This document shows, piece by piece, positions 5,973 to 37,494 of a DNA stretch of 64,000 bases. The DNA lies in IMG/VR virus record IMGVR_UViG_3300020576_004755, positions 118,850 through 182,849 of that record; one strand, 5' to 3'. Origin of the DNA: a virus (taxonomy: Duplodnaviria > Caudoviricetes). The notes under the pieces were generated by a model that was given only the letters and a program-made list of their open reading frames with translations, was not told the DNA's origin and made no database searches. The first letter of the stretch is position 1. Each line of letters begins with the position of its first letter. A program made the translations under genes and the position numbers.

Positions 5973-6350
5973 TTAGTGCGGAACCTCTTTAACTACTGGA
6001 CAAAAGTGACTCTCTGAGTCTGCTAGCTCGTTTAGAAAGACTTTGACAAAGGCTCGGACAGGCATGGGAAGTGAGGTTGTTGTGACTGCTGGAGCAAAAT
6101 GATAAGATACAGTGTTCTGAAAAGTCCAGTAATGGTTGATCCAACCTGAACCCTCTTCTCCCTTATAGAGAAAGTTGCACGGTCCCGTGATTGCCTTGTC
6201 GGAGATTTCAATAAATCGTTTGGTTTTTGGATTTGTCATATTATTTCGAGAAATAGAACCAAGGAAGCCGATAAAAGATGCAGAGTTAATCTTGAAAAAG
6301 ATTAATGGCATTGGTCCAAGAGTCTCTGTGTTTGTTCTACGGATTGTCAT
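5973..6350 (-). CDS. MTIR-tag family protein
   Basis: MTIRRT. Confidence 0.7.
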   Translation of the reverse strand: MTIRRTNTETLGPMPLIFFKINSASFIGFLGSISRNNMTNPKTKRFIEISDKAITGPCNFLYKGEEGSGWINHYWTFQNTVSYHFAPAVTTTSLPMPVRAFVKVFLNELADSESHFCPVVKEVPH

Positions 6351-7401
6351 CTTTTTCTTTCTTCAAAAGCTGTGCAATCAACCCATCCCACATTAGCCGA
6401 AACTTGATATAGTTTGGAGGAGACTCAATATACTTGTAAATCTTCTCGTTCACAAAGAGTTCAATCAACCACTCTTGCTTCTCTGTGAACGGATCGGACT
6501 TTCCAAGATACCGCTTTATCTGGCTCTTAAACCAAAAGAGAAAGGTTTCCTTCTCGACGCAGTAAAGCTCAATTCCACGAATGAACCGACTGATCTCGTC
6601 TGAGAAGAAGATTTTCTCCTTTTTCTTCTTTTGGTATTTCGTTGCCATGATGTTGTTTTTAGTCGTGCGAGGTATAGGATCCGAGAGAAAAGCTGCAATA
6701 CTCACGGGTCCACTCAAGCGTCTCAGGATCGTACTCTCCGTCAACATAGACGGTGATCTGTGGGCTGGTGTAATATCCACCCGTAGAAATCTCTTCAAGG
6801 TGGATCTCTGCCTTGTACTTCTTAAGAAGCTCCTGTAGATCCTTTCGGAACTCTGCTTCGACTTCCTGCTTGGTAATCATTATGGTCATGGTTCAATCAT
6901 CATCAGTGTGCGTCAGGATAGATAAGGTAACAGTTGGTATCCAGTAAAAGTGCTTCTGCGTGAACTCGACGATTTCCACAAGAACATCGCGGTTCGCCTA
7001 CAATCCAAGTCTCGCATTCGCAAATGTTGCTGTCAATCCTTACTTCTTCGTCTGATTCAGACCAAACCTCAAGCCAAAATGCAATTGCATCTTCTGCCGA
7101 ATCGGCAATTACTTCTGCGGAAGAAATCGATTCGTTTCGAAAACTAGCTTTCATTTTTCTACTTCTCCTTGTTTCTTAGAAGAGAGCCGCAAATCGCGTT
7201 TAGCTTCTGCAAATGCTCAATTTCTTGTAACAATGCATCTACATTGGTGACGTTCGCGTCGTCTTTGAAATTTGCACACGCTTTCATCCAAGCAAGTGCA
7301 GCCTCATAATCATTTGGATTCTCATCCAAATTCTTGCGGGTGATTTTTACTTGATCAACCGCTGCACGGCATTGATCGATAATTGGTTTGGTGATTGTCA
7401 A
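6337..7401 (-). other. four small hypothetical genes (6337-6648, 6659-6889, 6903-7154, 7159-7401)
   Basis: abutting ORFs; 6903-7154 has CECETW..RCSCGNRRV Cys motif. Confidence 0.55.
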
Positions 7402-7690
7402 ATTCTATATCACGCAAGGTAGAGTCAACAGATTTAATTGTGTCATAGACTTGCCGACGAATAGTCTTTGGAAGGTATGGGACTTCGTGATAGGTTAGTT
7501 CTTTAAATCTTCCAAGGCATGACAGGCTGGCTGTTGAATAATCTGCTGGAAGTTGAAAGCTGCACTGTCGAACATAACCAAGGTAATACCAATCGCCATA
7601 AGAATCAAAATCATGTATAAAGATGGCTACGTAGATGTTGTCCACAGTCTCTTGAACATAATCATGACGGTGTAGTGCTCTTATGGTCAT
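7355..7690 (-). CDS. MTIR-tag family protein
   Basis: MTIRAL. Confidence 0.7.
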   Translation of the reverse strand: MTIRALHRHDYVQETVDNIYVAIFIHDFDSYGDWYYLGYVRQCSFQLPADYSTASLSCLGRFKELTYHEVPYLPKTIRRQVYDTIKSVDSTLRDIEFDNHQTNYRSMPCSG

Positions 7691-7908
7691 TACAATTCAC
7701 CCCTCCAAATCTTCTTGATTGCATTATATTGCATTGGCAATGCTCTCATTGGACCAACCATGTAATTCATGGTGAAGTTCATCATGTAATATTTAGGTAG
7801 GGGATGACGAGAGGATTCATGGACAGGGATAACATCTTCTTTGTCCTGAAGAAGAGTATAGATTTCAAAGCCTTCAACAACATGCGAATATGTTTTTCTG
7901 ATTGTCAT
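7690..7908 (-). CDS. MTIR-tag family protein
   Basis: MTIRKT; ATGA overlap. Confidence 0.7.
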   Translation of the reverse strand: MTIRKTYSHVVEGFEIYTLLQDKEDVIPVHESSRHPLPKYYMMNFTMNYMVGPMRALPMQYNAIKKIWRGEL

Positions 7909-8153
7909 TTCCAATCTCCCAAATCTTTCACCAAGATCAACTTATGTTCATTGCGAATCTCTTCGCAAAACTTATGGGCACTTTTCCTAATTGCTGTTGT
8001 GAAAACTGTGCCTTGCCATGGATAACAGATTTGATAAGTGTAAGCATAGCAGGCAAGACCAAAAGGTACATTCTTGTCGTTGTCAGCTACCAACAAATAG
8101 TTCAAGCTACCAAAATGAGGATATGGTTTCTCTGGTCTTCTTCGAATTGTCAT
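7905..8153 (-). CDS. MTIR-tag family protein
   Basis: MTIRRR; ATGA overlap. Confidence 0.7.
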   Translation of the reverse strand: MTIRRRPEKPYPHFGSLNYLLVADNDKNVPFGLACYAYTYQICYPWQGTVFTTAIRKSAHKFCEEIRNEHKLILVKDLGDWK

Positions 8154-8461
8154 ACGTACAATGGTCCATTTCCTTCTTTTTGCTCAAGATAGCCATATTC
8201 AAGGCAAAGGGTTTGAAGCCAAAGAAACTCTTTTGAGGACGCTAGTGGTTTAATTCCTGCGTCTGAATATAGAAACTTTTCAGAAAAGCAATTTTCACCA
8301 GCGATGATTCTTCTAGCCCATGCGTTGAACCATATAAGCTTTCTAAGATCCTCGCCGAGATATGTGATAATCACAGCAGGATACCAATCCGTAGAAGCAC
8401 GAAGAGGATTTGTTCTGATCTGATACTCGAAAGTATTCTTATGTGAGATTCTAATAGCCAA
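8150..8461 (-). CDS. MTIR-tag family protein (TTG start, MAIR)
   Basis: TTG GCT ATT AGA; 11-nt overlap. Confidence 0.65.
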   Translation of the reverse strand: MAIRISHKNTFEYQIRTNPLRASTDWYPAVIITYLGEDLRKLIWFNAWARRIIAGENCFSEKFLYSDAGIKPLASSKEFLWLQTLCLEYGYLEQKEGNGPLYV

Positions 8462-8705
8462 AGCTACAACCACTTTCCTGCATCATGCGTTGAAACTCCA
8501 TATGGTGTTTAACGTTACCATTATAGAACATAAACGTCCAGTCTGATTTCCTGACTTTGCCGTCTGTGCCTATAAATGTTCGGTTTTGAAGTATGTATCC
8601 ATGCCGGTCCAGTCTATTATTACGCTTTTTGTTGCCCCATGTGAGCATGATGAAACAATCCGTCTTTTTCAAGAGCTTTGTACTGTGTCTTGCTCGGATT
8701 GTCAT
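8451..8705 (-). CDS. MTIR-tag family protein
   Basis: MTIRAR. Confidence 0.7.
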   Translation of the reverse strand: MTIRARHSTKLLKKTDCFIMLTWGNKKRNNRLDRHGYILQNRTFIGTDGKVRKSDWTFMFYNGNVKHHMEFQRMMQESGCSFGY

Positions 8706-8708
8706 TAC

Positions 8709-8984
8709 TCAGAATCCTCTGATTGTTGTAGACCTACGTTCTGCTGCTGGCATCTGTGCTAGGATTCCCCACGCATAAGAAAGAACCAATGGATGAGACT
8801 TTCTTGTTGCCTTGGTGGCAAGGTAGATTTTGCCTTGCGATTCTTGTGTCACAACATCAAGAGTCATGAAATGATAATGTGGTCTAAGGTTCAAATGAAA
8901 GGCACGGAACAGATTCTTACTTTTTCTGTTCTGCATGAGCTTCAATGTCTTCTTGTCGAAGTTGAGTGTTTGTCTGATTGTCAT
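8709..8984 (-). CDS. MTIR-tag family protein
   Basis: MTIRQT. Confidence 0.7.
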   Translation of the reverse strand: MTIRQTLNFDKKTLKLMQNRKSKNLFRAFHLNLRPHYHFMTLDVVTQESQGKIYLATKATRKSHPLVLSYAWGILAQMPAAERRSTTIRGF

Positions 8985-8987
8985 TTT

Positions 8988-9191
8988 TTATAGGAGTCCT
9001 CTTGAAACAAGTTCAGCAATCTGCACGTAACGGATGTAAAGACGGGTATGAGCTACAGCACGACCAGAGAATGTCATTGGTATCTCTTTCTGGCAGCATG
9101 ATAGACTGTAAAGCATAGTGTCAGGGGAAATCATCAAGTAAACAGTCTGTTTTCTTTTGAGCTTATCTGTGTGGGTTGTTCTAATGGTCAT
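8988..9191 (-). CDS. MTIR-tag family protein
   Basis: internal start MTIRTT. Confidence 0.65.
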   Translation of the reverse strand: MTIRTTHTDKLKRKQTVYLMISPDTMLYSLSCCQKEIPMTFSGRAVAHTRLYIRYVQIAELVSRGLL

Positions 9192-9193
9192 TT

Positions 9194-9448
9194 TTATAGC
9201 AGTCCATCGAAAGCTTTGTGCCAGTTTGGAATATCGGTTTGATATAGAAAGAGTCTTTTGAGAAATCCAGAGTAAGAGTTTACCTGAGAAAGAGTTGCTA
9301 GTTTGAATCCAACAGGAGTACGAGGACGCGACCATGCTGTTGGTGACACAGTGCTCTTGTGAAGAGTTACAATCTTGGCTCTTATGTTCTCAACTCCATG
9401 AGTCTTTAGTGAAAGAATATTTGTTGTGCAGGTTGATCTGATTGTCAT
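9194..9448 (-). CDS. MTIR-tag family protein
   Basis: internal start MTIRST; ATGA overlap. Confidence 0.65.
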   Translation of the reverse strand: MTIRSTCTTNILSLKTHGVENIRAKIVTLHKSTVSPTAWSRPRTPVGFKLATLSQVNSYSGFLKRLFLYQTDIPNWHKAFDGLL

Positions 9449-9699
9449 GGCATTGGTAGTCCAAAGTGAGTTCTCCATTGCAAGGATTCTTCGTAACTTA
9501 CGTTGCAACCCCAGGTAAACAGGGGTCGAGTGGGTCGAGGGTGATTACTTAGCCTTCTAGCAGAATAAGAATAAATCATCCCCGTCCAGTGCCGTTTCGG
9601 ATCGTCGTTTAACGATACAATCTTCGCAAGATACCTACCATTGTAGCAGTCTGTTGGCAGGTTTGTAAACTTTGTTACGTGTATTGTCCTGATCGTCAT
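9445..9699 (-). CDS. MTIR-tag family protein
   Basis: MTIRTI. Confidence 0.7.
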   Translation of the reverse strand: MTIRTIHVTKFTNLPTDCYNGRYLAKIVSLNDDPKRHWTGMIYSYSARRLSNHPRPTRPLFTWGCNVSYEESLQWRTHFGLPMP

Positions 9700-9706
9700 T
9701 TGTTTA

Positions 9707-9940
9707 TTAGAAGCTTCCTTGAAGCATTATATCCGAAATCAACCGAAAATGTGTGCCATTCATTGTAAAGAACAAATTGCGCAGACCCTCTCCATCAATA
9801 CGAACCATGCAGCCTGCCCCAATGGTATATATGTTGCTTAGGTGTACAGTGTCATCTTGGAAAATCCCATGACCAGCCCAAAAGTTGCAAGCAAACGCAT
9901 TGCTACAATCGTCGTATTTGAATTTTGTTCTAATTGCCAT
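9707..9940 (-). CDS. MTIR-tag family protein
   Basis: MAIRTK; 11-nt overlap. Confidence 0.7.
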   Translation of the reverse strand: MAIRTKFKYDDCSNAFACNFWAGHGIFQDDTVHLSNIYTIGAGCMVRIDGEGLRNLFFTMNGTHFRLISDIMLQGSF

Positions 9941-10190
9941 AATACTCGCACCACAATTGAATATATCTGTTTAGCATTTTCTCTGGAGCAAAGATTGGGG
10001 CATCACGAAAATAGTAGTGGTCTTGCTTGTATCCACTGGACACTTGCATTTCGTACGTAACTACGGTGCCAGATTCTCTCTCGTGAGTCCAGTTAACTGG
10101 ACTTGTTTGTCTTGTTTGTGCATAGAAAGACCGCTTCCAAAAAACTTCCCATTTTGGCAATGCGTATATGTATGTTGTTCTAACGGTCAT
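9930..10190 (-). CDS. MTIR-tag family protein
   Basis: MTVRTT; ATGA overlap. Confidence 0.7.
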   Translation of the reverse strand: MTVRTTYIYALPKWEVFWKRSFYAQTRQTSPVNWTHERESGTVVTYEMQVSSGYKQDHYYFRDAPIFAPEKMLNRYIQLWCEYYGN

Positions 10191-10393
10191 ATAAACTCTG
10201 CATAGTATATGCGTACCAAGTATGACGCCGCGACGAACGCCTCATCAGAGAAAAACCAATTTTTTCTACTTTTTACCAAAGGGTATTCAAGAATAAGCCC
10301 AGAATGCCTCCGATGAATACGACGAGCAAAAGTGGTAGTTGCTGTACTCTTGGAAGAAGGTAGTTCTGCTCTGTATGTTGTTCTAATCGTCAT
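10187..10393 (-). CDS. MTIR-tag family protein
   Basis: MTIRTT. Confidence 0.7.
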   Translation of the reverse strand: MTIRTTYRAELPSSKSTATTTFARRIHRRHSGLILEYPLVKSRKNWFFSDEAFVAASYLVRIYYAEFI

Positions 10394-10394
10394 T

Positions 10395-10658
10395 TTAGTC
10401 CATTATCTCCCCTCGCTCAATAGCCCAAACAAGTCTTGTGCATGGATCTCTTGGACCAAGCGGAGTTCGATTCAATGCGATTCGAACCTCGTCCTTCCCA
10501 GGTCGAAACCAGAAATCTCTATACATGAAAAATCCCGATGGTGTAGGAGAATATAACCCAGGAGGAAAAGAAGGCGGAAGAGGTCTGGCATTTTCTTTAA
10601 ACAGACCAACAACAATGACCATGTTGTTTTTTGACTTGTATGTCTTTCGGATTGTCAT
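10395..10658 (-). CDS. MTIR-tag family protein
   Basis: MTIRKT; ATGA overlap. Confidence 0.7.
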   Translation of the reverse strand: MTIRKTYKSKNNMVIVVGLFKENARPLPPSFPPGLYSPTPSGFFMYRDFWFRPGKDEVRIALNRTPLGPRDPCTRLVWAIERGEIMD

Positions 10659-11101
10659 GGCATGATGTATTCACTGGTAAGAGCATCAATGTTTTCAAAA
10701 TCGTAGTGATTTGCAAGGTCTTCCCATGCCATCTTTGTTTGAAGTCTCATTGTGAGATGAAATGATTTGGGTTTGACAAGACCTAGCTTTGCCAAAATAT
10801 ACTCTACGTCCTGCTTAAAACTACGATAGTGATTCTCGGCAAGAAAATGAGCTAGACTTTCATGTAGTCCATGTGGCATAGACTTGTGAGTTACCTGCCA
10901 ACTTTCTACATTCGCAAAAATGGGCTCAGACTGTTTTAGATTTCTACCATAACGAATTGCAGGACGACATATCACAATCTTTGGCATCGTGTTAACGTAG
11001 AAATGTTTCCCGTCCCCTGTCCGACCAGCATAAAGTGGTACTTTCCTTGTACGAGTCAAGGTTGTTGGAAGTTCTGTTTGATATGTTCTTCTAATGGTCA
11101 T
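10655..11101 (-). CDS. MTIR-tag family protein, paralog of 32770..33192
   Basis: internal start MTIRRT; VNTMPK and KPKSF shared. Confidence 0.7.
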   Translation of the reverse strand: MTIRRTYQTELPTTLTRTRKVPLYAGRTGDGKHFYVNTMPKIVICRPAIRYGRNLKQSEPIFANVESWQVTHKSMPHGLHESLAHFLAENHYRSFKQDVEYILAKLGLVKPKSFHLTMRLQTKMAWEDLANHYDFENIDALTSEYIMP

Positions 11102-11364
11102 GGAAGTGTTTTGTTTCTCATAACAGAGACGAGGCATTCCATAACATCAGCAATCAAGAGAATTGATATTTGATGCTTAGTCATCGTCGATTCAGCTCCA
11201 AATAGACTGGACAGATTTGTTCCAATATCGGTGACTAGATCTATAAGATAACACTCACCGTCAGGATGATATTGACCTTTTCTGTCAGCAAACGTGCCAA
11301 TCCAAGCACTCGACGGAGTGCTTGTATCCCAATCGTCAGTCCTGTGTGTTCTTCTAATGGTCAT
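11098..11364 (-). CDS. MTIR-tag family protein
   Basis: internal start MTIRRT. Confidence 0.65.
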   Translation of the reverse strand: MTIRRTHRTDDWDTSTPSSAWIGTFADRKGQYHPDGECYLIDLVTDIGTNLSSLFGAESTMTKHQISILLIADVMECLVSVMRNKTLP

Positions 11365-11374
11365 AGTGTTTTTA

Positions 11375-11620
11375 TCAGAACACTCCAGTCTCTTCAATTT
11401 GCTTGAACAACTTCCCATATGTTGTGGGAAGTCCAGTTCTACCTTGACACATAGGAACTTTGTTATATCCGCTGTTAATATGCCTATATTTAGGATGAAA
11501 ATACCAGTTACTTTTCCATACGAGTATCGGTTCGTTGTAGCGCCAGGAATATTCGTCTATAAACGCTACAGAAACAGCACTTGAATTGTTACTGGATTTT
11601 ATTGTATGTCTAATTGTCAT
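11375..11620 (-). CDS. MTIR-tag family protein
   Basis: MTIRHT; 11-nt overlap. Confidence 0.7.
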   Translation of the reverse strand: MTIRHTIKSSNNSSAVSVAFIDEYSWRYNEPILVWKSNWYFHPKYRHINSGYNKVPMCQGRTGLPTTYGKLFKQIEETGVF

Positions 11621-11858
11621 GTGACTTGACCAGTTCTTTGAACTCTGTCATTGCACAAGCACTCACAAAGTATTTATCTGCGCGGACGAAACGTTCCTCA
11701 CGAATAGAAAGTTTGTGAATGCAGTTGAGAACGAGTTTGTTGCACAGAGACTTTACCTCTATGTTGTGATAGACATAGGTGTCAAAACGATATACTTTGC
11801 CTAGCTTTTCCGCAAAGCTTATCAAGCCATTCTGCACGTTTGTTGTTCTAATTGTCAT
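11610..11858 (-). CDS. MTIR-tag family protein
   Basis: MTIRTT; ATGA overlap. Confidence 0.7.
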   Translation of the reverse strand: MTIRTTNVQNGLISFAEKLGKVYRFDTYVYHNIEVKSLCNKLVLNCIHKLSIREERFVRADKYFVSACAMTEFKELVKSHDN

Positions 11859-12499
11859 TGTACCAATAGTCCATTCTTCTTCAAGAAGTCATAGAACTTA
11901 CCAAACCGCTGCGCATCAAGCTTGTTGATCTTTTGCACTTGATTTAGCTTGGTTTGGTAAGCATCCCAATCAATGTCGTCCTTGGTCCAGTTAAGCTCAG
12001 AACCCTTATTCATATCCTTTCTAAAATCACCAATGACCACGGTTGAGTAGAACCCTCCGGTGCCCTTCATCTTGTTATAGATTTGATTTAGCAATTGGTT
12101 GAAGAGCTTGTCTGCAAGTACCTCGTTCGGAGTATCGTTATTGCGAGTTGCTCCAACGACTGTATTCTCTGCCGAAGTGTAATCTGTCATCTGTTGACGA
12201 CACTTCAAATCAATCTCTGCCTTCTTGTGCCATTCGTTTTCATTGATCTGGAAAGATAGCTCTCCGGTCCTGAACGGCTTGTAGAAGTTAAGAATAACCT
12301 CAAGACCTGCCCAATCAAGATAAGGCAAGTCTTCTGTCTTGGTCGTGAAGAACGTATCGTGCCATACTTGATCGCACTCAAGCATTACGTGCTTAAGGCG
12401 AAGCAGAACACGACTGTTCACAAAATCATTCATTCCATCGTACTGAATGAACGCTGATGCTGATGATGCCTGCTGTTGCTTCTGTTGCTGCTTGCTCAT
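11855..12499 (-). CDS. hypothetical protein
   Basis: start MSKQQQ gives ATGA overlap with 12496..12828. Confidence 0.7.
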   Translation of the reverse strand: MSKQQQKQQQASSASAFIQYDGMNDFVNSRVLLRLKHVMLECDQVWHDTFFTTKTEDLPYLDWAGLEVILNFYKPFRTGELSFQINENEWHKKAEIDLKCRQQMTDYTSAENTVVGATRNNDTPNEVLADKLFNQLLNQIYNKMKGTGGFYSTVVIGDFRKDMNKGSELNWTKDDIDWDAYQTKLNQVQKINKLDAQRFGKFYDFLKKNGLLVQ

Positions 12500-13743: not shown

Positions 13744-14049
13744 TCACTTAAACTTTGTTATCGTATCGCACATTTGTTCGTAGTCCTTTTGCATATCTTT
13801 GTCAAAGGCATTGAATGTCTTTGGATAGAGATAGTGAAGGAAATACCTGTAGGTTTCATCTGCCATGGTAACAGAGTACAGCGACGGATTGATCATTGTG
13901 TTTTCCGATAACACACGAACAGCAAATGGAAGAGTAATCACAAGTCCATCAATCCTCAAAATGATAAAGCTTCCAACATGACTAGAGCGTCCTAGTCCTT
14001 GGAAAAGCAAAATCTTCTTTCTTGTCTTGCTGTTATATCTTATTGCCAT
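13744..14049 (-). CDS. MTIR-tag family protein
   Basis: MAIRYN. Confidence 0.7.
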   Translation of the reverse strand: MAIRYNSKTRKKILLFQGLGRSSHVGSFIILRIDGLVITLPFAVRVLSENTMINPSLYSVTMADETYRYFLHYLYPKTFNAFDKDMQKDYEQMCDTITKFK

Positions 14050-14368
14050 AGTGTTGAAGTGTGTAAAGGTTCTTTAGCTCTTTGTGAATCTGCTTCATTT
14101 CAAGGTTCTTTAACACTTTGAAGTGACTTGCGTGGTTTATGTATTTTAGTTCAAGAAGAGGATCCTTGAAGACTGCGTATCTCTTATCCATCAAGACTTG
14201 ACGACCTTTTACTTTCCAGTAAGGAAACATATGGTTAATCATATCGCCAACAGAGATTTCCTCGCCATTGATGTAAAGCTCGTAATACATATCCCTTGAT
14301 TTGACGTTGTAGGACGAAACAAGATGAAATACGTTCACCTTCGTTACCGTGATCCTTCGGATTGTCAT
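14033..14368 (-). CDS. MTIR-tag family protein
   Basis: MTIRRI; ATGA overlap. Confidence 0.7.
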   Translation of the reverse strand: MTIRRITVTKVNVFHLVSSYNVKSRDMYYELYINGEEISVGDMINHMFPYWKVKGRQVLMDKRYAVFKDPLLELKYINHASHFKVLKNLEMKQIHKELKNLYTLQHYGNKI

Positions 14369-14736: not shown

Positions 14737-14787
14737 ACCAATAGATATGACCATCCATTATGATTATTCTAGAACTGTCTTTTCTAC

Positions 14788-15246: not shown

Positions 15247-15352
15247 TTTTGATTGGGATTCCTGTGAAAAAAGAAATAGGTGTTTTTAAAACAGCACAGC
15301 TAACAGTAACGAGGATACCAGCCGAAGGATTAAGAGTAAATGCATTTCGATA

Positions 15353-15868: not shown

Positions 15869-15883
15869 AACAATAACTAGCAG

Positions 15884-26732: not shown

Positions 26733-26740
26733 AAAAAATA

Positions 26741-27555: not shown

Positions 27556-27556
27556 G

Positions 27557-27850: not shown

Positions 27851-27906
27851 AGACCTACATCCTACCATTTCAATGGATCCAAATAAAGATATTGATCTAT
27901 TATTCG

Positions 27907-29065: not shown

Positions 29066-29085
29066 TGTTTGTTGTTTTCTTTTTT

Positions 29086-29580
29086 CTACTTTTTATGTGC
29101 GCTGCGCGGAACGACAATCTGATTGTAATAGTCGTACGTTATGGAAAATGGAATTTGGCAGCAGTTCTCTTTCAAGAAATCGAGTACATATTTGAACAAC
29201 CTTGAATCCGAGTCAATTCTGTCAATGCCAATCAAGCTATACAGTAGTGCATCATCTGACTGATGAAAACAATAAGCTGCCTCTATAAACGAGCCATATC
29301 GACTAAGACACCTTAGATGAGTTCTATATCTTAGAGAATGAGAATTGGGTTCTGATACCATAAAATGCACAAAGTTACCAGAAGCGTGCTGATACTTTGC
29401 TAAGTCTTGCTTCTCCAGCTTTGTTAGCTCTGGAGTGAACCACATTGCTGTCCTCCACAGATATTTGACTTTGCTAATGAAGGCATGAATCGGCGAGTTC
29501 ACCTTGCTCTTAGGAATGCCAAGGTTGTCAATCACAATCAGATGATTGTTGTCTTTATGGTTTGATACTCGTATTGTCAT
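29086..29580 (-). CDS. MTIR-tag family protein
   Basis: MTIRVS; ATGA overlap. Confidence 0.75.
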   Translation of the reverse strand: MTIRVSNHKDNNHLIVIDNLGIPKSKVNSPIHAFISKVKYLWRTAMWFTPELTKLEKQDLAKYQHASGNFVHFMVSEPNSHSLRYRTHLRCLSRYGSFIEAAYCFHQSDDALLYSLIGIDRIDSDSRLFKYVLDFLKENCCQIPFSITYDYYNQIVVPRSAHKK

Positions 29581-29846
29581 TTGTCCAAATCCCTTCTTGC
29601 TTGTTTCAAGATTGGATCAATAACTCTGAGCTTACAATCTAGACCAAAGAAATCAACAGGAACTCTAGACATTCTGAATTTTAGACCATAGGCGTGTCTG
29701 ATGTTCGTTGTTACTTCGTAATGTATTGAAAAGTTATCGTTTATAGGACCGATGCGCAATCGTCTTATGACATAAGACAGACTCTCCGTACGAAACAATC
29801 TTACAGACTGCTCTGTGTTGATCCAGTCATTATGACGGATGGTCAT
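29577..29846 (-). CDS. MTIR-tag family protein
   Basis: MTIRHN; ATGA overlap. Confidence 0.7.
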   Translation of the reverse strand: MTIRHNDWINTEQSVRLFRTESLSYVIRRLRIGPINDNFSIHYEVTTNIRHAYGLKFRMSRVPVDFFGLDCKLRVIDPILKQARRDLDK

Positions 29847-30247
29847 AGCTTCTCACCACACTCCATCTTTCTCCACAGCTTGATTGCATGTTGATTGGCA
29901 ATGGAAATGTTGTATTCGGTTACAGTCTCTTGCGAGAGCATCCAAGACTTGTTGACGCGATCATACGAACCAAGTTGAAGTCTGTAGATAACCCAAGCCG
30001 GATCTGTGTTATAGCTCATCCACGCATGAGGAATGTTTGTAGGATTGGGACTAACATTATAGTTGTGAACCTGTGGAGGAGGAGAATGACGAGTTTTATT
30101 CTCACGACAACAGACAATCTTCAACTTGTTCATTTCTTGCATCATGGTGTTCATCGAGGAGCCCCATTTTGTTGGAGATGCTGCCTTTGAGAACTTCATG
30201 TACGAAAAGGGATATTGAATAGCAGGGATTCTTTGTCTAATGGTCAT
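29843..30247 (-). CDS. MTIR-tag family protein
   Basis: MTIRQR; ATGA overlap. Confidence 0.7.
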   Translation of the reverse strand: MTIRQRIPAIQYPFSYMKFSKAASPTKWGSSMNTMMQEMNKLKIVCCRENKTRHSPPPQVHNYNVSPNPTNIPHAWMSYNTDPAWVIYRLQLGSYDRVNKSWMLSQETVTEYNISIANQHAIKLWRKMECGEKL

Positions 30248-30558
30248 AGTTCCCACCATCTTGGTCGTTCTCCAAGCCCATATACAATATAGCTAACGTG
30301 CTCCTCGATGTAATATGGCACAGAATGTGCGTAAGCCGCAGTCATGAATCTTGGAAGCACAGCGGGATCATTTTTTGTGGACGAAAACTTGTTGAGGATT
30401 GCCTCACGATAGGAAATGAATGTGTTCTTTATTGGCAGCTTGGTAAGTGCATCTATTAGCCATGGCTGTGACGATTCCAAAAAGACTGCCATACGCATCT
30501 TTGATGCGTTGTATATTCTTTGTTGCTGTTGCTGTTGCTGTTGTCTTCGAATGGTCAT
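30244..30558 (-). CDS. MTIR-tag family protein with poly-Q
   Basis: MTIRRQQQQQQQQ; promoter 30575-30604. Confidence 0.7.
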   Translation of the reverse strand: MTIRRQQQQQQQQRIYNASKMRMAVFLESSQPWLIDALTKLPIKNTFISYREAILNKFSSTKNDPAVLPRFMTAAYAHSVPYYIEEHVSYIVYGLGERPRWWEL

Positions 30559-30615
30559 AGGGTTTGTAACTCCCATTGTATAGAGAAAGATTCAAACAAT
30601 AAACATAACCAAACA

Positions 30616-30981
30616 TTATGCTTGTGGTACGTCCATCATCATTCTCGTATATTCGTGCGCGAATTCATCGAAGATTCGTTGAAGCCTCTTGTTGTCCTTG
30701 TGAAATCCTTTCAATGAGAGATCGAAAGAGATAACCGAAAGAAAATGAGAAACGAACTCTTTCGATCCTGAATAGGAGCCAGCAATTCTTGTTGCACTTT
30801 TTTTTGTTTTGCTTCCCGAAACGTTGACAAAAACATTGCCAATAACAATAAGCTTGTTTGTTCTAAGCCAATCAATCTGAGTGCCCACCGAGCAATGGAT
30901 CGCGTTAAGATAGCCATGATAGGGGAAATAGGTATAGCTATCAAGAGAGGCATTCTTTTTTATGCTTGAACGTATTGTCAT
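30616..30981 (-). CDS. MTIR-tag family protein
   Basis: internal start MTIRSS. Confidence 0.7.
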   Translation of the reverse strand: MTIRSSIKKNASLDSYTYFPYHGYLNAIHCSVGTQIDWLRTNKLIVIGNVFVNVSGSKTKKSATRIAGSYSGSKEFVSHFLSVISFDLSLKGFHKDNKRLQRIFDEFAHEYTRMMMDVPQA

Positions 30982-30991
30982 AATGACTTTT

Positions 30992-31372
30992 TCACCAATG
31001 AATCGTTCCCGTTTCAATGATCTTGTCGAAGTCTGTTCGATATTCATGAATAGAACCCATTCTGAGACAGAGAACAGAAAGAATCTTTTGTGCGCTCTTA
31101 ACCCTAGCTTTTCTAAAATGCCAAGATTGAATATCAAGATAGAGCATTCTGTGTCTCATTTCGGTATGTGTTGTGCCTGTGAATATGTTGGTGTAAATCT
31201 CTTGTGTGTAGACTGTCATGATCTTGACAAAGCTTTTGCATTTGAATTGTGATCGGGTCTTATCAGAAATAGGAGCATACATAGACTTTCTCCAAGACTC
31301 ATAAGTTTCCTTCAAGATCTTGTCGGTAAGCTCCATCTTCTTCTTTGATATAAGCTGTACTCGGATTGTCAT
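30992..31372 (-). CDS. MTIR-tag family protein
   Basis: internal start MTIRVQ; ATGA overlap. Confidence 0.7.
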   Translation of the reverse strand: MTIRVQLISKKKMELTDKILKETYESWRKSMYAPISDKTRSQFKCKSFVKIMTVYTQEIYTNIFTGTTHTEMRHRMLYLDIQSWHFRKARVKSAQKILSVLCLRMGSIHEYRTDFDKIIETGTIHW

Positions 31373-31638
31373 TCGCGTATTCCTCTTTCGAAGTCTTTCC
31401 ACAAAAAAGAGACTTTATCATTTGAGTCTACCGACTTCTTCCGCGAGAAGAAGTATTCGGAGCTTTTGTTGTAAGGAAACCATGTGATTAAATCTATTGT
31501 GACCAAATGATCAGGAAGACCAATATGAGAACTACGCAGCGTGACAATCTTGGGAGATCCAATTGGGTTATATGGATTGCCATGTACATGCTTTGTTACT
31601 TGGTCCAAGTCAGAAACGTAACTTGCTCTGATTGTCAT
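31369..31638 (-). CDS. MTIR-tag family protein
   Basis: MTIRAS; ATGA overlap. Confidence 0.7.
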   Translation of the reverse strand: MTIRASYVSDLDQVTKHVHGNPYNPIGSPKIVTLRSSHIGLPDHLVTIDLITWFPYNKSSEYFFSRKKSVDSNDKVSFLWKDFERGIRE

Positions 31639-31889
31639 AACTCACCTTTGCTTATCCGATGCCATATTTCTATTTCTCTTAACAAAGCAATAGTATTTGC
31701 TAGGCAAGGACCGAAAGAAAGATTGGAAACGGCATTCTTATGACGTGGAACGTCCACGGCATCAAACATGACATATGCACTTGTTGTGTTTCTTGATTCA
31801 TAATAGATAACGATTACAAATCTTGTTGTACGATCCCATCGCATACGCTCATAATCAAATGGCGTTAGATGCCTGACTCTAATACTCAT
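31635..31889 (-). CDS. MTIR-tag family protein (MSIR)
   Basis: internal start MSIRVR; 11-nt overlap. Confidence 0.7.
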   Translation of the reverse strand: MSIRVRHLTPFDYERMRWDRTTRFVIVIYYESRNTTSAYVMFDAVDVPRHKNAVSNLSFGPCLANTIALLREIEIWHRISKGEL

Positions 31890-32433
31890 CGATAAGTTCT
31901 CCTTCTCGTATTCTACGAATATCTGGACAACTCGTGTTTTGTATACGTCTTTCTTTTGGTACCACGACATTATTGTAGCGATCAGGACGATGATAGAATG
32001 TATAGGCAAAAAGTGGTGGACGGCTTCTGTGATCCTCCAATTCTATTTCATTTGGTGAATGACAAAAACACATTTCAAAACCATATTCTTTCACGATACC
32101 AAGAAAGAGTTCATGAACTGCCAACGTTACTTTTCTGGTAAGTTCGACAGAGTTTTGAACCAGTTTGTAGTGAACAACTATATTGTTTCGCAGAGAATTT
32201 GCGTCTGTCTTGGCATAATGCAAAATTGCATCTTCGCCATACTTTTCCTTTTTTACAGATCTAAGGCTAGGAGAGTTGTAAAACGCAAGTTCATAAGGAT
32301 ATGTGTCTGTATAATGAGCGGAAGCGTGAAGGGCATAATGATACGCCTGACCAGCATAAAATCCAAACTCTAAATGAACATAGGCTGGCGCTGTTATGTC
32401 TTTGACATAAGATTTTGAAGCTCTAATGGTCAT
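31879..32433 (-). CDS. MTIR-tag family protein
   Basis: MTIRAS; 11-nt overlap. Confidence 0.75.
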   Translation of the reverse strand: MTIRASKSYVKDITAPAYVHLEFGFYAGQAYHYALHASAHYTDTYPYELAFYNSPSLRSVKKEKYGEDAILHYAKTDANSLRNNIVVHYKLVQNSVELTRKVTLAVHELFLGIVKEYGFEMCFCHSPNEIELEDHRSRPPLFAYTFYHRPDRYNNVVVPKERRIQNTSCPDIRRIREGELIDEY

Positions 32434-32761
32434 CTAGGTGTCTCCAAGACTTGTTGTAAATCTCTTCATAATGGTAATGATGAAACTTCTTTGGAAGCGG
32501 TGGAGTTGGAATGTTGTAGCCCTTGGGGAAATAGTTTCTCATGCGAAGATGAATAGCATCTTGCCAGGGATAATCCTTAGAATCTTCATGCCACTCTCTT
32601 GTGAACTTAATACCAATCAAAAAGAATGCTGCTGTTTCGTATAGTCCCTTGATTGGACCCCAATGAGCCATTGCTTGCCAGTAATGACAATGACAGACTC
32701 GTGTCACAATATCAAGGCTGTTGCCATCAAGGCTGTATAGGAGTTGGGTTCGAATGGTCAT
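32423..32761 (-). CDS. MTIR-tag family protein
   Basis: MTIRTQ. Confidence 0.7.
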   Translation of the reverse strand: MTIRTQLLYSLDGNSLDIVTRVCHCHYWQAMAHWGPIKGLYETAAFFLIGIKFTREWHEDSKDYPWQDAIHLRMRNYFPKGYNIPTPPLPKKFHHYHYEEIYNKSWRHLDDH

Positions 32762-32769
32762 GAAAGGGT

Positions 32770-33192
32770 TCAGCTTCCCATTAGGTCTATCAGCTTCATT
32801 GCTGACTGATCGTACAAGACTTCAACGTTACGTCTGTTGAGTTCCTCCAACAATCCTGTTGTTTGATGCGGAGACTCCAGCAACGAATCCAATATATGCA
32901 TTTCTGCTTTCTTAGAGAACTCAAAGGATTTTGGTTTCATTAGCCTAAGACCAACCAACATGTACTCCACGAATTCTCTCAAGGTCTTAATCTTTTCTAA
33001 AGAAGAGAACGTATATCTCACATGATATACGTCAGCATACACAAGACCCATTAACTCAACAGCGTGAGGCGTATAGACAACAAGCTTAGGCATTGTGTTG
33101 ACACGCAAGCCTTCTGTAGTCCTCGTAGGATGAGGCTTGCTTCTCTGTGTATAGACAGGAAGATCTGATTTGAATGTTGTTCTAATTGCCAT
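32770..33192 (-). CDS. MTIR-tag family protein, paralog of 10655..11101
   Basis: MAIRTT; 11-nt overlap. Confidence 0.75.
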   Translation of the reverse strand: MAIRTTFKSDLPVYTQRSKPHPTRTTEGLRVNTMPKLVVYTPHAVELMGLVYADVYHVRYTFSSLEKIKTLREFVEYMLVGLRLMKPKSFEFSKKAEMHILDSLLESPHQTTGLLEELNRRNVEVLYDQSAMKLIDLMGS

Positions 33193-33484
33193 ACTGGTAG
33201 TATTCCGTTCTCAACTTACGAAATTGGCTTCTTTGTGCATCAGATATCCGATTATCATCTACACCCCGACGCCAAAAGAAAATACGTTCAGATGGATTTG
33301 GGGCTTCTGGTCTATCGTATACGCAGATACCATATCGATAGTCTAAAACCCACGAAGAGGGGTTCCATATTATAAAAGGCATTCCAAGACGAGGAGGATA
33401 GGGACGACATTCAACAATAAGAGACTTAGCCTTTTTTATTGTCTCTGTTGGAATCTCGGATTTGAATGTTGTTCTAATGGTCAT
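33182..33484 (-). CDS. MTIR-tag family protein
   Basis: MTIRTT; 11-nt overlap. Confidence 0.7.
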   Translation of the reverse strand: MTIRTTFKSEIPTETIKKAKSLIVECRPYPPRLGMPFIIWNPSSWVLDYRYGICVYDRPEAPNPSERIFFWRRGVDDNRISDAQRSQFRKLRTEYYQYGN

Positions 33485-33755
33485 TTGCTTCTATCTGTAT
33501 CCATCTGTCTGTGAAAATGCGTCCACCTGAATGAACAGAAGCATCTGGTTCATAGTCTGGTGAGTTCCAAGAAGGTGCGTACTGCCAACTAGGATAAAAC
33601 TTGAACGTCGTCTTGTAGACCCAAGGAAATTCAATTGGGATGGTCCATGTATACGCAAACCATCTGTTTTTTCCAGCAGGCTTGCTATATTTGTCCAGAA
33701 GCGCAACAAGTCTCATCTTTGAGTTGTCAGACTTGAATGATGGTCTAATTGCCAT
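33474..33755 (-). CDS. MTIR-tag family protein
   Basis: MAIRPS; 11-nt overlap. Confidence 0.7.
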   Translation of the reverse strand: MAIRPSFKSDNSKMRLVALLDKYSKPAGKNRWFAYTWTIPIEFPWVYKTTFKFYPSWQYAPSWNSPDYEPDASVHSGGRIFTDRWIQIEANDH

Positions 33756-34011
33756 ACTTACCTGCCTCTACCTCATGCCATTTCTTTATTTTTTCTTCAT
33801 CTATTTCGATCCGTTGAGCAAGTCTTTTCTTGTGGCTAAAGTAGAACCTTTCGTCGAAGACTTCTGGATATCCCTTGAACAGTAAGTCTTGATGCATAAA
33901 GCGTTCGTCAGAAATCATGGAACCGCCAATCGTCGCTCGGTAGAGAAATGCTTCTTTTGTTACAATACGAACTCTGTTGTTTGGACTCTTGAATGTAATT
34001 CGAATGGACAT
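33745..34011 (-). CDS. MTIR-tag family protein (MSIR)
   Basis: internal start MSIRIT. Confidence 0.7.
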   Translation of the reverse strand: MSIRITFKSPNNRVRIVTKEAFLYRATIGGSMISDERFMHQDLLFKGYPEVFDERFYFSHKKRLAQRIEIDEEKIKKWHEVEAGKYGN

Positions 34012-34015
34012 ACTC

Positions 34016-34273
34016 TTACTTCCTTCTGCCATTCTCTATGTCATGCCAGATATCTTCAAAAGCACGATAGTCTTCACTAGCACAATTTGCATAGAATGAT
34101 CCAGCTTTTCTAAAGAACCATCCAGTCTTCATTGGATAGTCGCTATTCATATACAAGAAATTATAGTGAATTGCATCTGGTTTATTTGGATTCATTGCCA
34201 GAGTGCGAAACTTCACTTGTGAAAGAATACGAACTCGCGTTTCTGTGTGCTTATATGAAGTTCGAATTGTCAT
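34016..34273 (-). CDS. MTIR-tag family protein
   Basis: MTIRTS. Confidence 0.7.
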   Translation of the reverse strand: MTIRTSYKHTETRVRILSQVKFRTLAMNPNKPDAIHYNFLYMNSDYPMKTGWFFRKAGSFYANCASEDYRAFEDIWHDIENGRRK

Positions 34274-34278
34274 GTGCT

Positions 34279-34620
34279 TTATTTTTCGTTTTTTCTGTCT
34301 CTCAGCAAGGGATATCCAATCTTCCGACAGATTTCGTAGTAGACAGGCAATATCTCTATCATGGCTTTTTCCGGTACGTTGTCAAACATGGCACTAAACG
34401 TTTCGATTGGATACCATTCAATCTTCGACAAGCCATTGTCATTTATCCACTGTGATATCCGTGAGCTGCATGTAAACAGAGTGCAAAATCTTCGTGTTTT
34501 ATGAACAGAAAGATGAAACACTTTGCTCTGAACATCATAGAACGCAAACTGGTTGATCTGCTTTAGAGCTACTTGAAGTCTTGGAAGCTGCTCTTCCGAA
34601 TATTGGCTTCTAATGGTCAT
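34279..34620 (-). CDS. MTIR-tag family protein
   Basis: MTIRSQ; 11-nt overlap. Confidence 0.7.
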   Translation of the reverse strand: MTIRSQYSEEQLPRLQVALKQINQFAFYDVQSKVFHLSVHKTRRFCTLFTCSSRISQWINDNGLSKIEWYPIETFSAMFDNVPEKAMIEILPVYYEICRKIGYPLLRDRKNEK

Positions 34621-35002
34621 TGTATTCTCGCAAGATTTCTTCTATGAATTGATGAGCCTTGCGAGTCGAGTCGTTTTTTGGATCTTTCTTCCAAGGGATT
34701 GTTACATACTGCTTGGTCCAAACGTTGAACTTGCTTATATCATCCCAATTGCGAGATTTACCATTAACTTGATAGTAGACCGTAACTTTTCCTTCTTGGA
34801 ATTTTGAAACAGGAAACTCTAAAGGATGCTCACAGTTTGGTATAACCACCCCTAAAGTAAAGTAATAGGACGTTCGTTCGCTACTTCTCATGCTCAGTAG
34901 ACTACTACAGGCTCTTTGAGTAAAGATATAAACCCTCGTCTTCTTTTGTTTCCAAAAGAGATTAGAAAGGGGTTTTGATAATGTTGTGGCTCTGATGGTC
35001 AT
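34610..35002 (-). CDS. MTIR-tag family protein
   Basis: MTIRAT; ATGA overlap. Confidence 0.7.
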   Translation of the reverse strand: MTIRATTLSKPLSNLFWKQKKTRVYIFTQRACSSLLSMRSSERTSYYFTLGVVIPNCEHPLEFPVSKFQEGKVTVYYQVNGKSRNWDDISKFNVWTKQYVTIPWKKDPKNDSTRKAHQFIEEILREYNDH

Positions 35003-35331
35003 CGCACTAAAATTGCAACCTTCCTGTGATTCTTATGGAACCATCCCTGCTTGTTTGGCGGAAAAGACTTTGCATATGAATAGGAGATGTTGTTAATCTC
35101 TCTGGCAAGATGGGATTGGCAAGTGTCTCCAAGCCAACAAAAACTTGGCTTCATTTCATGAAATCTCATATAAATGCTAACGTTGTCGCTACGAAGAAGA
35201 TTGGTCATTATCAGAACTCCTGGATTATGCTCTGGTTCACGGAACATGGCAACATAGATCCATTCGTAATCTCCTGCTACTCCTACCCTGTGATATCTCG
35301 CTTTTATCTCTATTGTGGCTCGTATGGTCAT
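34999..35331 (-). CDS. MTIR-tag family protein
   Basis: MTIRAT; ATGA overlap. Confidence 0.7.
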   Translation of the reverse strand: MTIRATIEIKARYHRVGVAGDYEWIYVAMFREPEHNPGVLIMTNLLRSDNVSIYMRFHEMKPSFCWLGDTCQSHLAREINNISYSYAKSFPPNKQGWFHKNHRKVAILVR

Positions 35332-35669
35332 GAAATTAAAGAGCCTTCCATGATAGAAGCAAGTGCTCTGAACTGCCCTGGTCCATACAAGGTATATATG
35401 TCAGACATATGCGTACCTTGCATGTAGGCATTCCAGGGACATTCGTAATCTCCTACATCTCTTGTAAGTTGGTTGATTATGGCAGGATTTCTTGCTGCCG
35501 GTGTAGTTGCCAAAGTACCATTGATGATCTTCAAGGCTGCGTCAGAGAAGAAATAAGCATGAAAGACGTACAGCACAGGATTGACAAAAGCAAAGGAAGG
35601 AGAAGAAGAAGAAGAAGAAGGCAGATGACTTCTTGAATACTTTCTTGTTAGTGAAGCTCGAATGGTCAT
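35328..35669 (-). CDS. MTIR-tag family protein
   Basis: MTIRAS; ATGA overlap. Confidence 0.7.
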   Translation of the reverse strand: MTIRASLTRKYSRSHLPSSSSSSPSFAFVNPVLYVFHAYFFSDAALKIINGTLATTPAARNPAIINQLTRDVGDYECPWNAYMQGTHMSDIYTLYGPGQFRALASIMEGSLIS

Positions 35670-35989
35670 AGGTGTCTTTTTCTCATCGTGTTGCTTTCTT
35701 TGTCATTTCTTGGATAGGGAATGTCATACACAATGTTGTCGTAGATTTCTCTAAGCCGACAACTTGGATTATGAACAAGAAATCTGTAAGAAAAAGTGCC
35801 GTCATCATCATCATCATCATCATCTACCTCGTCAATAATGCGAAGCAAATAACCTTTTGCGTTGCTATGAGAAACGATCTTGAACTTGTAGGTATTACGA
35901 TATCCAGAGCTCTCGATCAAGGAGGCAGGAAGCTCTATCGATCCATAGCAAGAGTTTACGTTTCTTAGGTCTGTTGTTCGAATGGTCAT
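35666..35989 (-). CDS. MTIR-tag family protein with poly-D
   Basis: internal start MTIRTT. Confidence 0.7.
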   Translation of the reverse strand: MTIRTTDLRNVNSCYGSIELPASLIESSGYRNTYKFKIVSHSNAKGYLLRIIDEVDDDDDDDDGTFSYRFLVHNPSCRLREIYDNIVYDIPYPRNDKESNTMRKRHL

Positions 35990-35997
35990 AAAATAGT

Positions 35998-36534
35998 CTA
36001 ACTTCCCTTCTCTCTTTCTCCTCTTCCGATTGAATCCCATATGTCTCGTTCTTCTGACATGTTCTGATTGCTGCGTTTGAAGTTCACAGAGAACAGAGTT
36101 TTGTTATTTGTTGTTCCGTTATCGGAAGAAATGCTTGTGGTACGAGAGATTGTTGCCGTGATTCTTCCTACTTCATAACTGCCAACACCGAACGGACTGT
36201 TAAAATCTTTCTCAATAGCTCTGTAATAATTCAAGTCCTCAAGGGTGTAAGTGCGGACCTTTCCATCAACAGCTTCTTCATAAGCTATTTTGTCAAGAAT
36301 TCGATCAATGTTTGACTGGATCCTATCTGTCCAGTAAGCATGGGAGTCTGGATCTGGATACTTCTTTACATGAGTGAACGTATTGAGGAGCAATAGTCCC
36401 GATCCATCTATCATTGCTTCTCTTTTTATTCCTTTTCTTTTGCAAATGACATCTCCAAATAAAAGAGAAGAAGAAGAAAGACTTCTTGCAATGATCTCGA
36501 TGTTGATTGTTGGTATGGAGATACGGATGGTCAT
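35998..36534 (-). CDS. MTIR-tag family protein
   Basis: MTIRIS; ATGA overlap. Confidence 0.75.
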   Translation of the reverse strand: MTIRISIPTINIEIIARSLSSSSLLFGDVICKRKGIKREAMIDGSGLLLLNTFTHVKKYPDPDSHAYWTDRIQSNIDRILDKIAYEEAVDGKVRTYTLEDLNYYRAIEKDFNSPFGVGSYEVGRITATISRTTSISSDNGTTNNKTLFSVNFKRSNQNMSEERDIWDSIGRGEREKGS

Positions 36535-36968
36535 TGTTTCTGTTCTTCCTCTTTGTCAAACAGAAGATGAAACTGTTCAGAAGAAGTGGTCTGACAGATT
36601 GACGATGAATCAAAGCCTTTGTCAACGCTCAGGAACTTCAATACAGGCTTGTATCCTGAATAGAATGCGCCATCGCGACACAATACAAGTTGCCTTGTTG
36701 TATAGGTTCCCATTCCGGTAGGAGAACGTTCAATGGCATCAATGACACGTTGGTTTTGCATGATAGATTTTTCGTAAAACAGTCTGTCTTTTTTATGCTT
36801 TGCTGTGTACATAAGCCTGTTTAGATTGTCATTCTGTTGTTTCAAGTTCTTTGCCATTGCAGCTTGGTCAAAGTTCATTACATGCTTGGTAACGATCTTG
36901 ATCCCTTTGTCTCTAAGGAAGAGGAGGGAGGAGAATGATAGATCTTTTTGTTGTCTACGGATGGTCAT
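36531..36968 (-). CDS. MTIR-tag family protein
   Basis: MTIRRQ. Confidence 0.75.
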   Translation of the reverse strand: MTIRRQQKDLSFSSLLFLRDKGIKIVTKHVMNFDQAAMAKNLKQQNDNLNRLMYTAKHKKDRLFYEKSIMQNQRVIDAIERSPTGMGTYTTRQLVLCRDGAFYSGYKPVLKFLSVDKGFDSSSICQTTSSEQFHLLFDKEEEQKQ

Positions 36969-36988
36969 ATAGAATGGAATATAACCCC

Positions 36989-37018
36989 ATTATAGGTTAT
37001 TGTGCGCCGACAATAAAC
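36989..37018 (-). promoter_or_regulatory. early-type promoter near the head of the largest MTIR block
   Basis: GTTTAT-N18-TATAAT. Confidence 0.75.
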
Positions 37019-37092
37019 AAAAGAAGGGATTTTCTCAAATGTGCTCTTGAAAGCAAGAGCAATTGCCGCTAAAAATAGGAAGATTGTTGTTA

Positions 37093-37494
37093 TTATCTAT
37101 TGCCGACACTAAAACTGCCAAGAGGAAGATCTAGCAGATGAGGACAGTGATCTAAGATAGCTTGCCTGGTAATGGCATGAAGCTTTCTATTGATCTCGTC
37201 ACATTCATCATTCCATTTTTTGTTAAAAGTGGCATATACATGCTCTTGAGAAGAAGAACAGTTAAGCCGAAAGAGAGTTCCTTTAACGGTATCCATGGAA
37301 TACTCTGATGAGCTATTAGAGGAAGAAGAAGAACTAGCATCATGAGAATGGAAGTTCAGTCTAACGTATGTATAAGGAAACCCAAAGGCTCTTGAATGGT
37401 TGGCTTGGATAGCTTGTTTGTATTGCCAGAGAAAGCTATCCGATAGCTTTACTGTTTCTAATAAGACTGTTGTTCTTGTTCTTCTGATTGTCAT
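37093..37494 (-). CDS. MTIR-tag family protein (first of array)
   Basis: MTIRRT. Confidence 0.75.
   Translation of the reverse strand: MTIRRTRTTVLLETVKLSDSFLWQYKQAIQANHSRAFGFPYTYVRLNFHSHDASSSSSSNSSSEYSMDTVKGTLFRLNCSSSQEHVYATFNKKWNDECDEINRKLHAITRQAILDHCPHLLDLPLGSFSVGNR

Follow-up and report, generated by a model that had tools for sequence, protein, structure and literature searches.

A short N-terminal tag shared by about 75 otherwise dissimilar small proteins in an array of an uncultured phage

In T-even phages, the internal proteins are highly diverse, and their N-terminal capsid-targeting sequence (CTS) alone is conserved (PMC3012670). Other short N-terminal signals are the N-motif-1 degrons of ClpX, which include those of GapA (T-I-K-V), Dps (S-T-A-K-L), and lambda O (T-N-T-A-K-I) (Flynn et al. 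2003; tabulated in PMC9775585, Table 2, and PMC8138137, Table 1). Hyperplastic regions of T4-like phages carry PeSLs, which are mobile regulatory cassettes (PMC2839356; PMC4122927). Here we describe a 64,000-nucleotide stretch of DNA (the window), which is the last 64 kb of the 182,849-bp IMG/VR virus contig IMGVR_UViG_3300020576_004755, 48% complete by CheckV estimate. The window contains an array of small genes whose products begin with one N-terminal tag, M-T-I-R or a close variant, and which have little else in common. The pattern of conservation suggests that this tag is selected as a peptide and may be read by a single shared partner.

Judged from its genes, the source of the window is an uncultured T4-like jumbo myovirus. 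The contig codes for a gp23-family major capsid protein (PF07068), a portal protein, two tail-sheath paralogues, GroEL, and ribonucleotide reductase, and also for a gp21-type prohead protease (Peptidase_S77) at genome positions 30436-30879; the capsid protein and the protease are T4-type head genes. A sigma-70-like protein, two Amidoligase_2 enzymes, and a DUF2201 metallopeptidase/VWA protein are encoded on the contig as well. Thousands of uncultured relatives of the capsid protein are found on contigs of 250-340 kb, and DNA searches of the phage database gave no match.

Like the T4 proteins that carry a CTS (IPI, IPII, IPIII, and Alt), the tagged proteins belong to a T4-type phage and are small, basic, diverse, and hypervariable, with a short N-terminal leader in common. 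However, the CTS is about 10 residues long and ends in a gp21 site (L/I-x-E), whereas the tag described here has 4-8 residues and no such site. The CTS occurs in a handful of genes, while the tag occurs in about 75 genes in an early-gene-like block, and the two have no sequence resemblance. The likeness to ClpX N-motif-1 lies in a signal that would be placed at the free N-terminus, in a T-hydrophobic-basic core, and in the presence of a ClpP gene in the array. It differs in that the fifth residue is usually polar here, one array-bearing lineage (L022, below) lacks the basic residue, and no ClpX is found in the fragment. To our knowledge, no phage marks a whole gene set with an N-motif-1-type degron. 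PeSLs resemble the array in their association with blocks of small novel open reading frames (ORFs) in T4-type genomes and in being short conserved elements at gene boundaries, but they are composed of an intergenic promoter and a stem-loop and mediate recombination; here conservation lies within the ORF at the amino-acid level, and none is intergenic. What is new in this locus is its scale and the brevity of the tag. An earlier reading of the window from its letters (the original prediction) had stated that no family like this was described, which is too strong, because the T-even CTS set (PMC3012670) and ClpX N-motif-1 (PMC9775585) are comparable.

Sixty-four minus-strand genes with ATG starts begin M-[TASPG]-[IV]-R between window positions 5973 and 37494. 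Six further minus-strand members (one MTIQ, three with the same tag on GTG or TTG starts, one MMR, and one MPMR) bring the total to 70, arranged in runs of 1, 17, 15, and 37 genes. This agrees with the original prediction, which had reported about 70 tagged genes in runs of 17, 15, and 37. The set was enlarged to 75 by an MTTIR gene at 2726-3025 and by four members just upstream of the window (genome positions 114621-116045). Outside the block, the motif begins 2 of the 367 ATG-started ORFs (at least 60 residues) of the contig, compared to 55 of 117 longest-ORF calls on the array strand within it (Fisher p = 8e-37), so the objection that the motif merely follows background frequency fails. The tag had also been described as absent from recognisable genes and from everything right of 37.5 kb, and this was confirmed: no tagged gene lies beyond that point, and ClpP, a protein with a cREC receiver domain, and an SF0329-family protein are untagged although they are inside the block. 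The consensus is M-T-I-R-[T/R/A/S]-[T/S/Q]-[Y/H/I/F]-K, with residue 5 being T, R, A, or S in 50 of the 75 members, and background is reached by about residue 8. The "hyperplastic" block spans approximately 45 kb and is transcribed leftward, and nearly every fast-evolving small orphan protein in it has the tag. Its anatomy is that of an early region: the genes are very small, overlap closely, and lie on the other strand from the structural genes. Gaps between array genes are mostly 20 nt or less, or are replaced by overlaps. A scan for sigma-70 promoters and terminators returned shuffle-level results.

Beyond the tag, similarity among the members is rare. Of the 2,775 possible pairings of the 75 members, blastp matched 2 once the 12 N-terminal residues had been trimmed. 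When profiles were iterated over 185 array ORFs of four genomes, three paralogue pairs emerged, so that six window members have a paralogue within the window and 69 have none detectable. None of the 75 matched Pfam at E <= 0.01 or PHROGs at E <= 0.001, and no frame-shifted homology was found among array genes. The earlier statement that most of the bodies share nothing visible past about residue 10 is therefore borne out. Members are 67-283 residues long and soluble, with a transmembrane-like segment in two of the 75 and a signal peptide in none. Sixty-one are net positive, and the charge is +3.3 per 100 residues, compared to -2.0 in the untagged neighbours, of which the small ones are neutral to acidic. 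In composition, the tagged proteins fall between the conserved proteins of the phage and shuffled DNA.

The tagged genes can be considered real proteins because orthologues were found and aligned. An exhaustive HMMER search of 1.84 billion representatives with one member as query identified three orthologues, in which W, Y, and G positions are conserved, and another member is alignable across four phages. A homologous-protein search with one tagged member returned only the query, and a search of the ESM Atlas with the 283-residue member gave no match. The tag itself is probably unstructured: in the one usable AlphaFold model, from family A3 (mean confidence, pLDDT, 63), it is a low-confidence tail preceding an alpha/beta fold, with residues 1-8 in a segment of pLDDT below 50 and a mean of 36 over residues 1-10. 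Foldseek comparison of this model with PDB and BFVD found nothing below E = 0.001, and the AlphaFold2 model of family A2 (pLDDT 41) was unusable.

Conservation at a gene start can reflect selection on the peptide or on the RNA. Nucleotide information is 0.22 bit or less at all positions upstream of the tagged genes and rises abruptly at +1, the first position of the ATG. Within the tag it is 3-periodic, with low values at +6, +9, and +12 and a drop by half at +10, which is the synonymous first position of arginine. Arginine in the tag is encoded by AGR (47%) and CGN (53%) in the same proportions as in gene bodies, isoleucine codons match background, and serine is encoded by both TCN and AGY. 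Where members depart from the consensus, the replacement is conservative, with V or M in place of I and K or Q in place of R. Twenty-four starts overlap the upstream stop codon as ATGA and 11 overlap the upstream gene by 11 nt, while about half of the members have the same tag without overlap. In 43 conserved genes of this phage the N-termini vary, yet the start regions are equally A-rich and G-poor, and codons ending in A or C are preferred in the start regions of untagged genes as well. Phage-wide, Shine-Dalgarno signals are weak and 5' coding ends are A-rich and G-poor. The onset of conservation at the ATG, the synonymous dips, and the background use of arginine codons indicate selection on the tag as a peptide and not as RNA, a conclusion that is well supported by these sequence patterns. 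Two features qualify it: codon 2 favours ACC and ACA over ACT and ACG, with enrichment of ACC, and NCN codons specify just the four residues T, A, S, and P. Therefore, some RNA-level constraint is possibly superimposed.

The identity of residue 2 is relevant to the form of the mature protein. In every case it is a residue that allows removal of the initiator methionine by methionine aminopeptidase. In the "M-I-R" variants found in relatives, the methionine would stay, and the mature register x-I-R is unchanged. No "M-large-I-R" variant was seen among the array genes of the window and its relatives. Together, the methionine-excision pattern and the register of the "M-I-R" variants suggest that the free N-terminus is measured, and the presence of a phage peptide deformylase beside the array is consistent with this.

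Sister contigs were reached through ClpP homologues, giving four array-bearing genomes including that of the window. Contig ERZ4198739 NODE_70 (ClpP 74-76% identical) has a syntenic array that is likewise headed by the amidoligase pair and encloses ClpP and the corresponding untagged island; 48 of its 58 small array genes are tagged. In SRR10132701_2666 (L016; ClpP 72% identical), 21 of 34 genes are tagged, and there are four "M-I-R" and three K/Q variants. An array is also present in the 30%-GC contig of GCA_013565555.1 (L022; ClpP 67% identical), where arginine is found in none of 19 genes and about 17 of the 19 start M-[T/S]-I-x or M-I-x. Array-less relatives (ClpP 55-60% identical) show 0 of 26 and 3 of 28 such starts, the latter in L024, the AT-rich control (p = 6e-8 compared to L022). 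The motif first noticed in the window is thus shared by related phages that have the array, and array-less relatives are without it. In each of the three orthologue families with members in all four genomes, L022 has L, A, or I at residue 4 and the other three genomes have R. This comparison suggests that residue 4 changed in concert in pre-existing genes, and the diversity of codons used disfavours gene conversion as the cause. Because residue 4 differs in concert within orthologues, one shared trans-acting reader of the tag is a reasonable inference, and this is our strongest argument for it.

Tagged genes evolve much faster than their untagged neighbours. In the closest relative, 14 of the 70 tagged genes have a counterpart (26-66% identity), compared to 9 of 15 untagged neighbours (42-94% identity), and the prediction of a rapidly diversifying set is upheld. 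Wider searches added little: a scan of IMG/VR with a two-copy tag pattern gave chance hits only, and a related-locus search with the amidoligase found nothing. Among the matches listed from a metagenome scan (at least 120), nearly all were false positives in WD40 proteins ("TIRVWD") or tandem repeats, and the only true arrays were on L016-type phage contigs.

The original prediction had interpreted the tagged proteins as an arsenal of effectors with a shared handle for docking, localisation, export, or timed degradation. Peptide-level selection and concerted change fit the part of this proposal that calls for a shared handle. Export, on the other hand, appears unlikely, given the scarcity of transmembrane-like segments and the lack of signal peptides.

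Of the possible roles, we tentatively favour that of a ClpX N-motif-1-like degron working with the phage ClpP and deformylase, a reading by analogy that we hold to be possible and not yet probable. The x-I-R N-terminus would be a degron-like handle for an AAA+ unfoldase, which would pass the tagged proteins to the phage ClpP encoded within the array. The phage peptide deformylase (PDF) encoded beside the array would secure N-terminal maturation, and the outcome would be a short, synchronised lifetime for the whole effector set. ClpP is inside the array in all four array-bearing genomes. An alignment of the phage ClpP with PDB chains shows that Ser, His, and Asp are kept at three stretches, which we take to be the triad sites. 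The PDF gene neighbours the array in the window genome and in L016 and L022; in L023, which has no array, it is missing from the syntenic spot. The early-region anatomy of the block also favours this reading. T-I-R is a T-hydrophobic-basic core, one conservative change from the T-I-K of GapA. The N-motif-1 consensus is polar-T/hydrophobic-hydrophobic-basic-hydrophobic at the N-terminus.

The evidence against the Clp degron is also substantial. ClpP is encoded in the array-less relatives L019, L023, and L024 and so is not specific to the tag, and neither a ClpX-type (AAA_2) gene nor a ClpS gene was found in the 183-kb fragment, which is 48% complete. Furthermore, the L022 lineage lacks the basic residue found in every listed N-motif-1 example, and position 5 is mostly taken by a polar residue (T, R, A, S) and not by a hydrophobic one. 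The tag may instead belong to an addressing system of an undescribed kind, a possibility that we entertain with the same reserve: a minimal tag (mature x-I-R; ancestral T/S-I) would mark the effector arsenal for one receptor that co-evolves with it and is neither ClpX nor the T4 scaffold core. The contig also encodes a 475-residue protein at genome positions 93257-94684 on the plus strand (L005:13257-14684); its C-terminal half carries a classical AAA domain (PF00004), and its N-domain, of 250 residues, is unassigned. Its nearest solved relatives are proteasomal Rpt subunits (a weak match, E = 1e-4), and it is a possible unfoldase.

Several other explanations can be considered for the tag. A capsid-targeting leader like the T4 CTS, which would load diverse small basic proteins into the prohead core for injection with the DNA as counter-defence, is nearly as good and ranks just behind the Clp degron, although we regard it as somewhat unlikely. 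The phage has a gp23-family capsid and a gp21-type prohead protease, its tagged proteins are hypervariable and mostly basic (61 of 75 net positive), and a short N-terminal leader is the sole shared part of these otherwise unrelated proteins, just as T-even internal proteins of the same phage lineage share the CTS only (PMC3012670). However, [LI]-x-E occurs within residues 5-15 of three of the 75 members and [SAG]-x-E, the form of the prohead-protease site in giant phages, in three, neither above the rate further inside the proteins, and the basic charge equals that of random-like sequence of the same composition. T4 has three internal-protein genes, compared to about 75 here, and the array has early-region anatomy on the strand opposite to the structural genes. 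Scaffold binding, moreover, needs neither a fixed N-terminal register nor a methionine-excision pattern. Less likely is that there is no dedicated reader and that the first codons are a cis-acting "good start" (for initiation, early elongation, deformylation, or methionine removal), inherited or converged on by genes born in a nursery. This would account for the synonymous bias within the tag (ACC/ACA over ACT/ACG; A-ending arginine codons), for the 35 starts that double as an upstream stop in ATGA or 11-nt overlaps, and for tagging in a phage with weak Shine-Dalgarno use and A-rich start regions. A composition halfway to random translation, as in young genes, and the existence of a few local duplicates are also as expected from it. 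It is difficult to reconcile, however, with the fact that this start is not used by the phage's conserved genes, which are presumably highly expressed, even where they lie within the block. The A-rich bias is generic and not specific to the tag, the arginine and isoleucine codon families are used in background proportions, and residue 4 switches in concert within orthologues.

An RNA operator that covers the start codon and is recognised by a nuclease or a translational repressor, with the peptide as a by-product, is improbable. In T4, RegA sites overlap the AUG of many early mRNAs, and the motif can be written as AUG-NCM-AUH-MGA, with T, A, S, and P being exactly the NCN residues and U and G avoided at +6. 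Conservation nevertheless begins at +1 with none upstream, the variable positions are the synonymous ones in a 3-periodic pattern, serine is encoded by AGY as well as TCN, and substitutions are conservative (V/M for I; K/Q for R). The "MIR" variants drop a whole codon, which breaks the RNA register and keeps that of the mature peptide. A search for the RegA family gave no match, but its control was silent too. We give equally little credence to mature Thr/Ser-Ile-Arg being the substrate site of a phage modifying enzyme such as one of the two Amidoligase_2 enzymes. The amidoligase pair borders the array head in the window and in relative L148, and PDF would expose the alpha-amine; still, the link is purely positional, and this synteny is seen in two close relatives only. 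We know of no substrate for the Amidoligase_2 family, which counts against assigning it one here, and no radical-SAM enzyme was found in the fragment. Finally, the array could descend from a single ancestral gene by tandem duplication, with the tag being the best-conserved first structural element of one fold. The gradual fading of the consensus over residues 5-9, a subgroup sharing MTIRTTFKSxLP, and the three detectable paralogue pairs point in this direction. Against this, 69 of 75 members have no paralogue even by profiles, lengths range from 67 to 283 residues, the one usable model places the tag outside a fold that matches nothing, and common descent alone cannot explain the concerted change of residue 4 in orthologues; we consider it very unlikely.

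The array is encoded on the minus strand of the window. At its left end, an isolated tagged gene (5973-6350; MTIRRTNTE..., 125 residues) has a 66% identical orthologue in relative L013 that is tagged too, and it is followed by a run of 17 tagged small genes at 7355-11858, one of which has a TTG start (8150-8461). Further left, the 99-residue product of 2726-3025 (minus strand) has a degenerate, out-of-register start, MTTIRSS, and its membership is doubtful. Three untagged minus-strand genes separate the first two long runs: a conserved 214-residue protein with a poly-Q N-terminus (11855-12499), which has no Pfam match and is 88% identical in the relative; a cREC_REC receiver-domain protein (PF20274; 12496-12828), 94% identical in the relative; and the phage ClpP (PF00574; 12893-13618), which begins MKYIVNV. 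The poly-Q protein travels with ClpP and the cREC gene in the window genome and in NODE_70-type relatives. In SRR10132701_2666 it is kept beside ClpP, and no cREC gene was called there; the 214-residue protein and ClpP may form a conserved module.

The next run, at 13744-20946, contains 15 tagged minus-strand genes, including the MTIQ gene (15884-16597) and an MGIR gene (20095-20946) whose product has 283 residues. An untagged minus-strand island at 20976-23730, which includes the SF0329 family gene (22069-22554), is syntenic in the relative, where about half of its genes are well conserved. It is followed by the longest run of tagged minus-strand genes, 37 in total (23808-37494), among them two with GTG starts (24338-24835 and 25148-25462), the MMR gene (25897-26307), and the MPMR gene (26304-26732). 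In this run, the gene at 30244-30558 encodes MTIRR followed by eight glutamines (a CAA/CAG repeat), and serine runs come immediately after the tag in several members (26741-27211, 35328-35669, and 35998-36534). Two near-identical strains differ by 21 single-nucleotide polymorphisms and one indel across 20.5 kb, which is too sparse for estimating the ratio of nonsynonymous to synonymous polymorphism (pN/pS). Nineteen of the 21 polymorphisms and the indel fall in a 63-bp patch (24067-24129) at the C-terminal end of the tagged gene 24068-24322 and are mostly nonsynonymous; the patch may reflect recombination or local hypervariation.

The array head and the amidoligase operon are separated by a divergent leader (37495-37866). 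It has AGCTTATTGG and TACTGTAAGCTTATT repeats on the array side and TTTCC-A(6-7)-TTT elements on the amidoligase side. The relative's leader is repeat-rich as well, with its own repeats, CAGTTTGACC and AAATTTGTCTACG, and such repeats are probably operator or promoter arrays. The two Amidoligase_2 (PF12224) genes are on the plus strand (37867-40757), divergent from the array head, in an arrangement shared by relative L148. Directly after them is a gene resembling GIY-YIG/NUMOD3 homing endonucleases (40779-41783), whose position is also shared by L148.

Two other repeated elements were observed on the contig. The 9-mer AACAAGCTT, which includes the HindIII palindrome AAGCTT, has 35 copies contig-wide, about 17 times expectation (for example at window positions 2522, 11926, 22525, and 53323-53339), and the copies are almost all within coding regions on either strand. 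Long, terminator-like hairpins with CTATATTTA are located in gaps between structural genes (genome positions 31525-31663, 32195-32325, and others). The motif CTATAYTTR was considered as a late-promoter motif and rejected because it sits in hairpins upstream of structural genes; it says nothing on timing.

If one partner reads the tag, about 75 orphan proteins of this phage would become one experimentally tractable class, and a four-residue label would identify the phage's variable effector set straight from sequence. Pull-downs would be able to exploit the tag as a handle, and it would be portable to other proteins for timed degradation or capsid loading. With arginine in one lineage and not in another, the array would be a natural case of co-evolution between a tag and its reader. 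In these genomes, moreover, gene starts can be corrected by means of the tag, and several GTG/TTG and internal starts are among those corrected.

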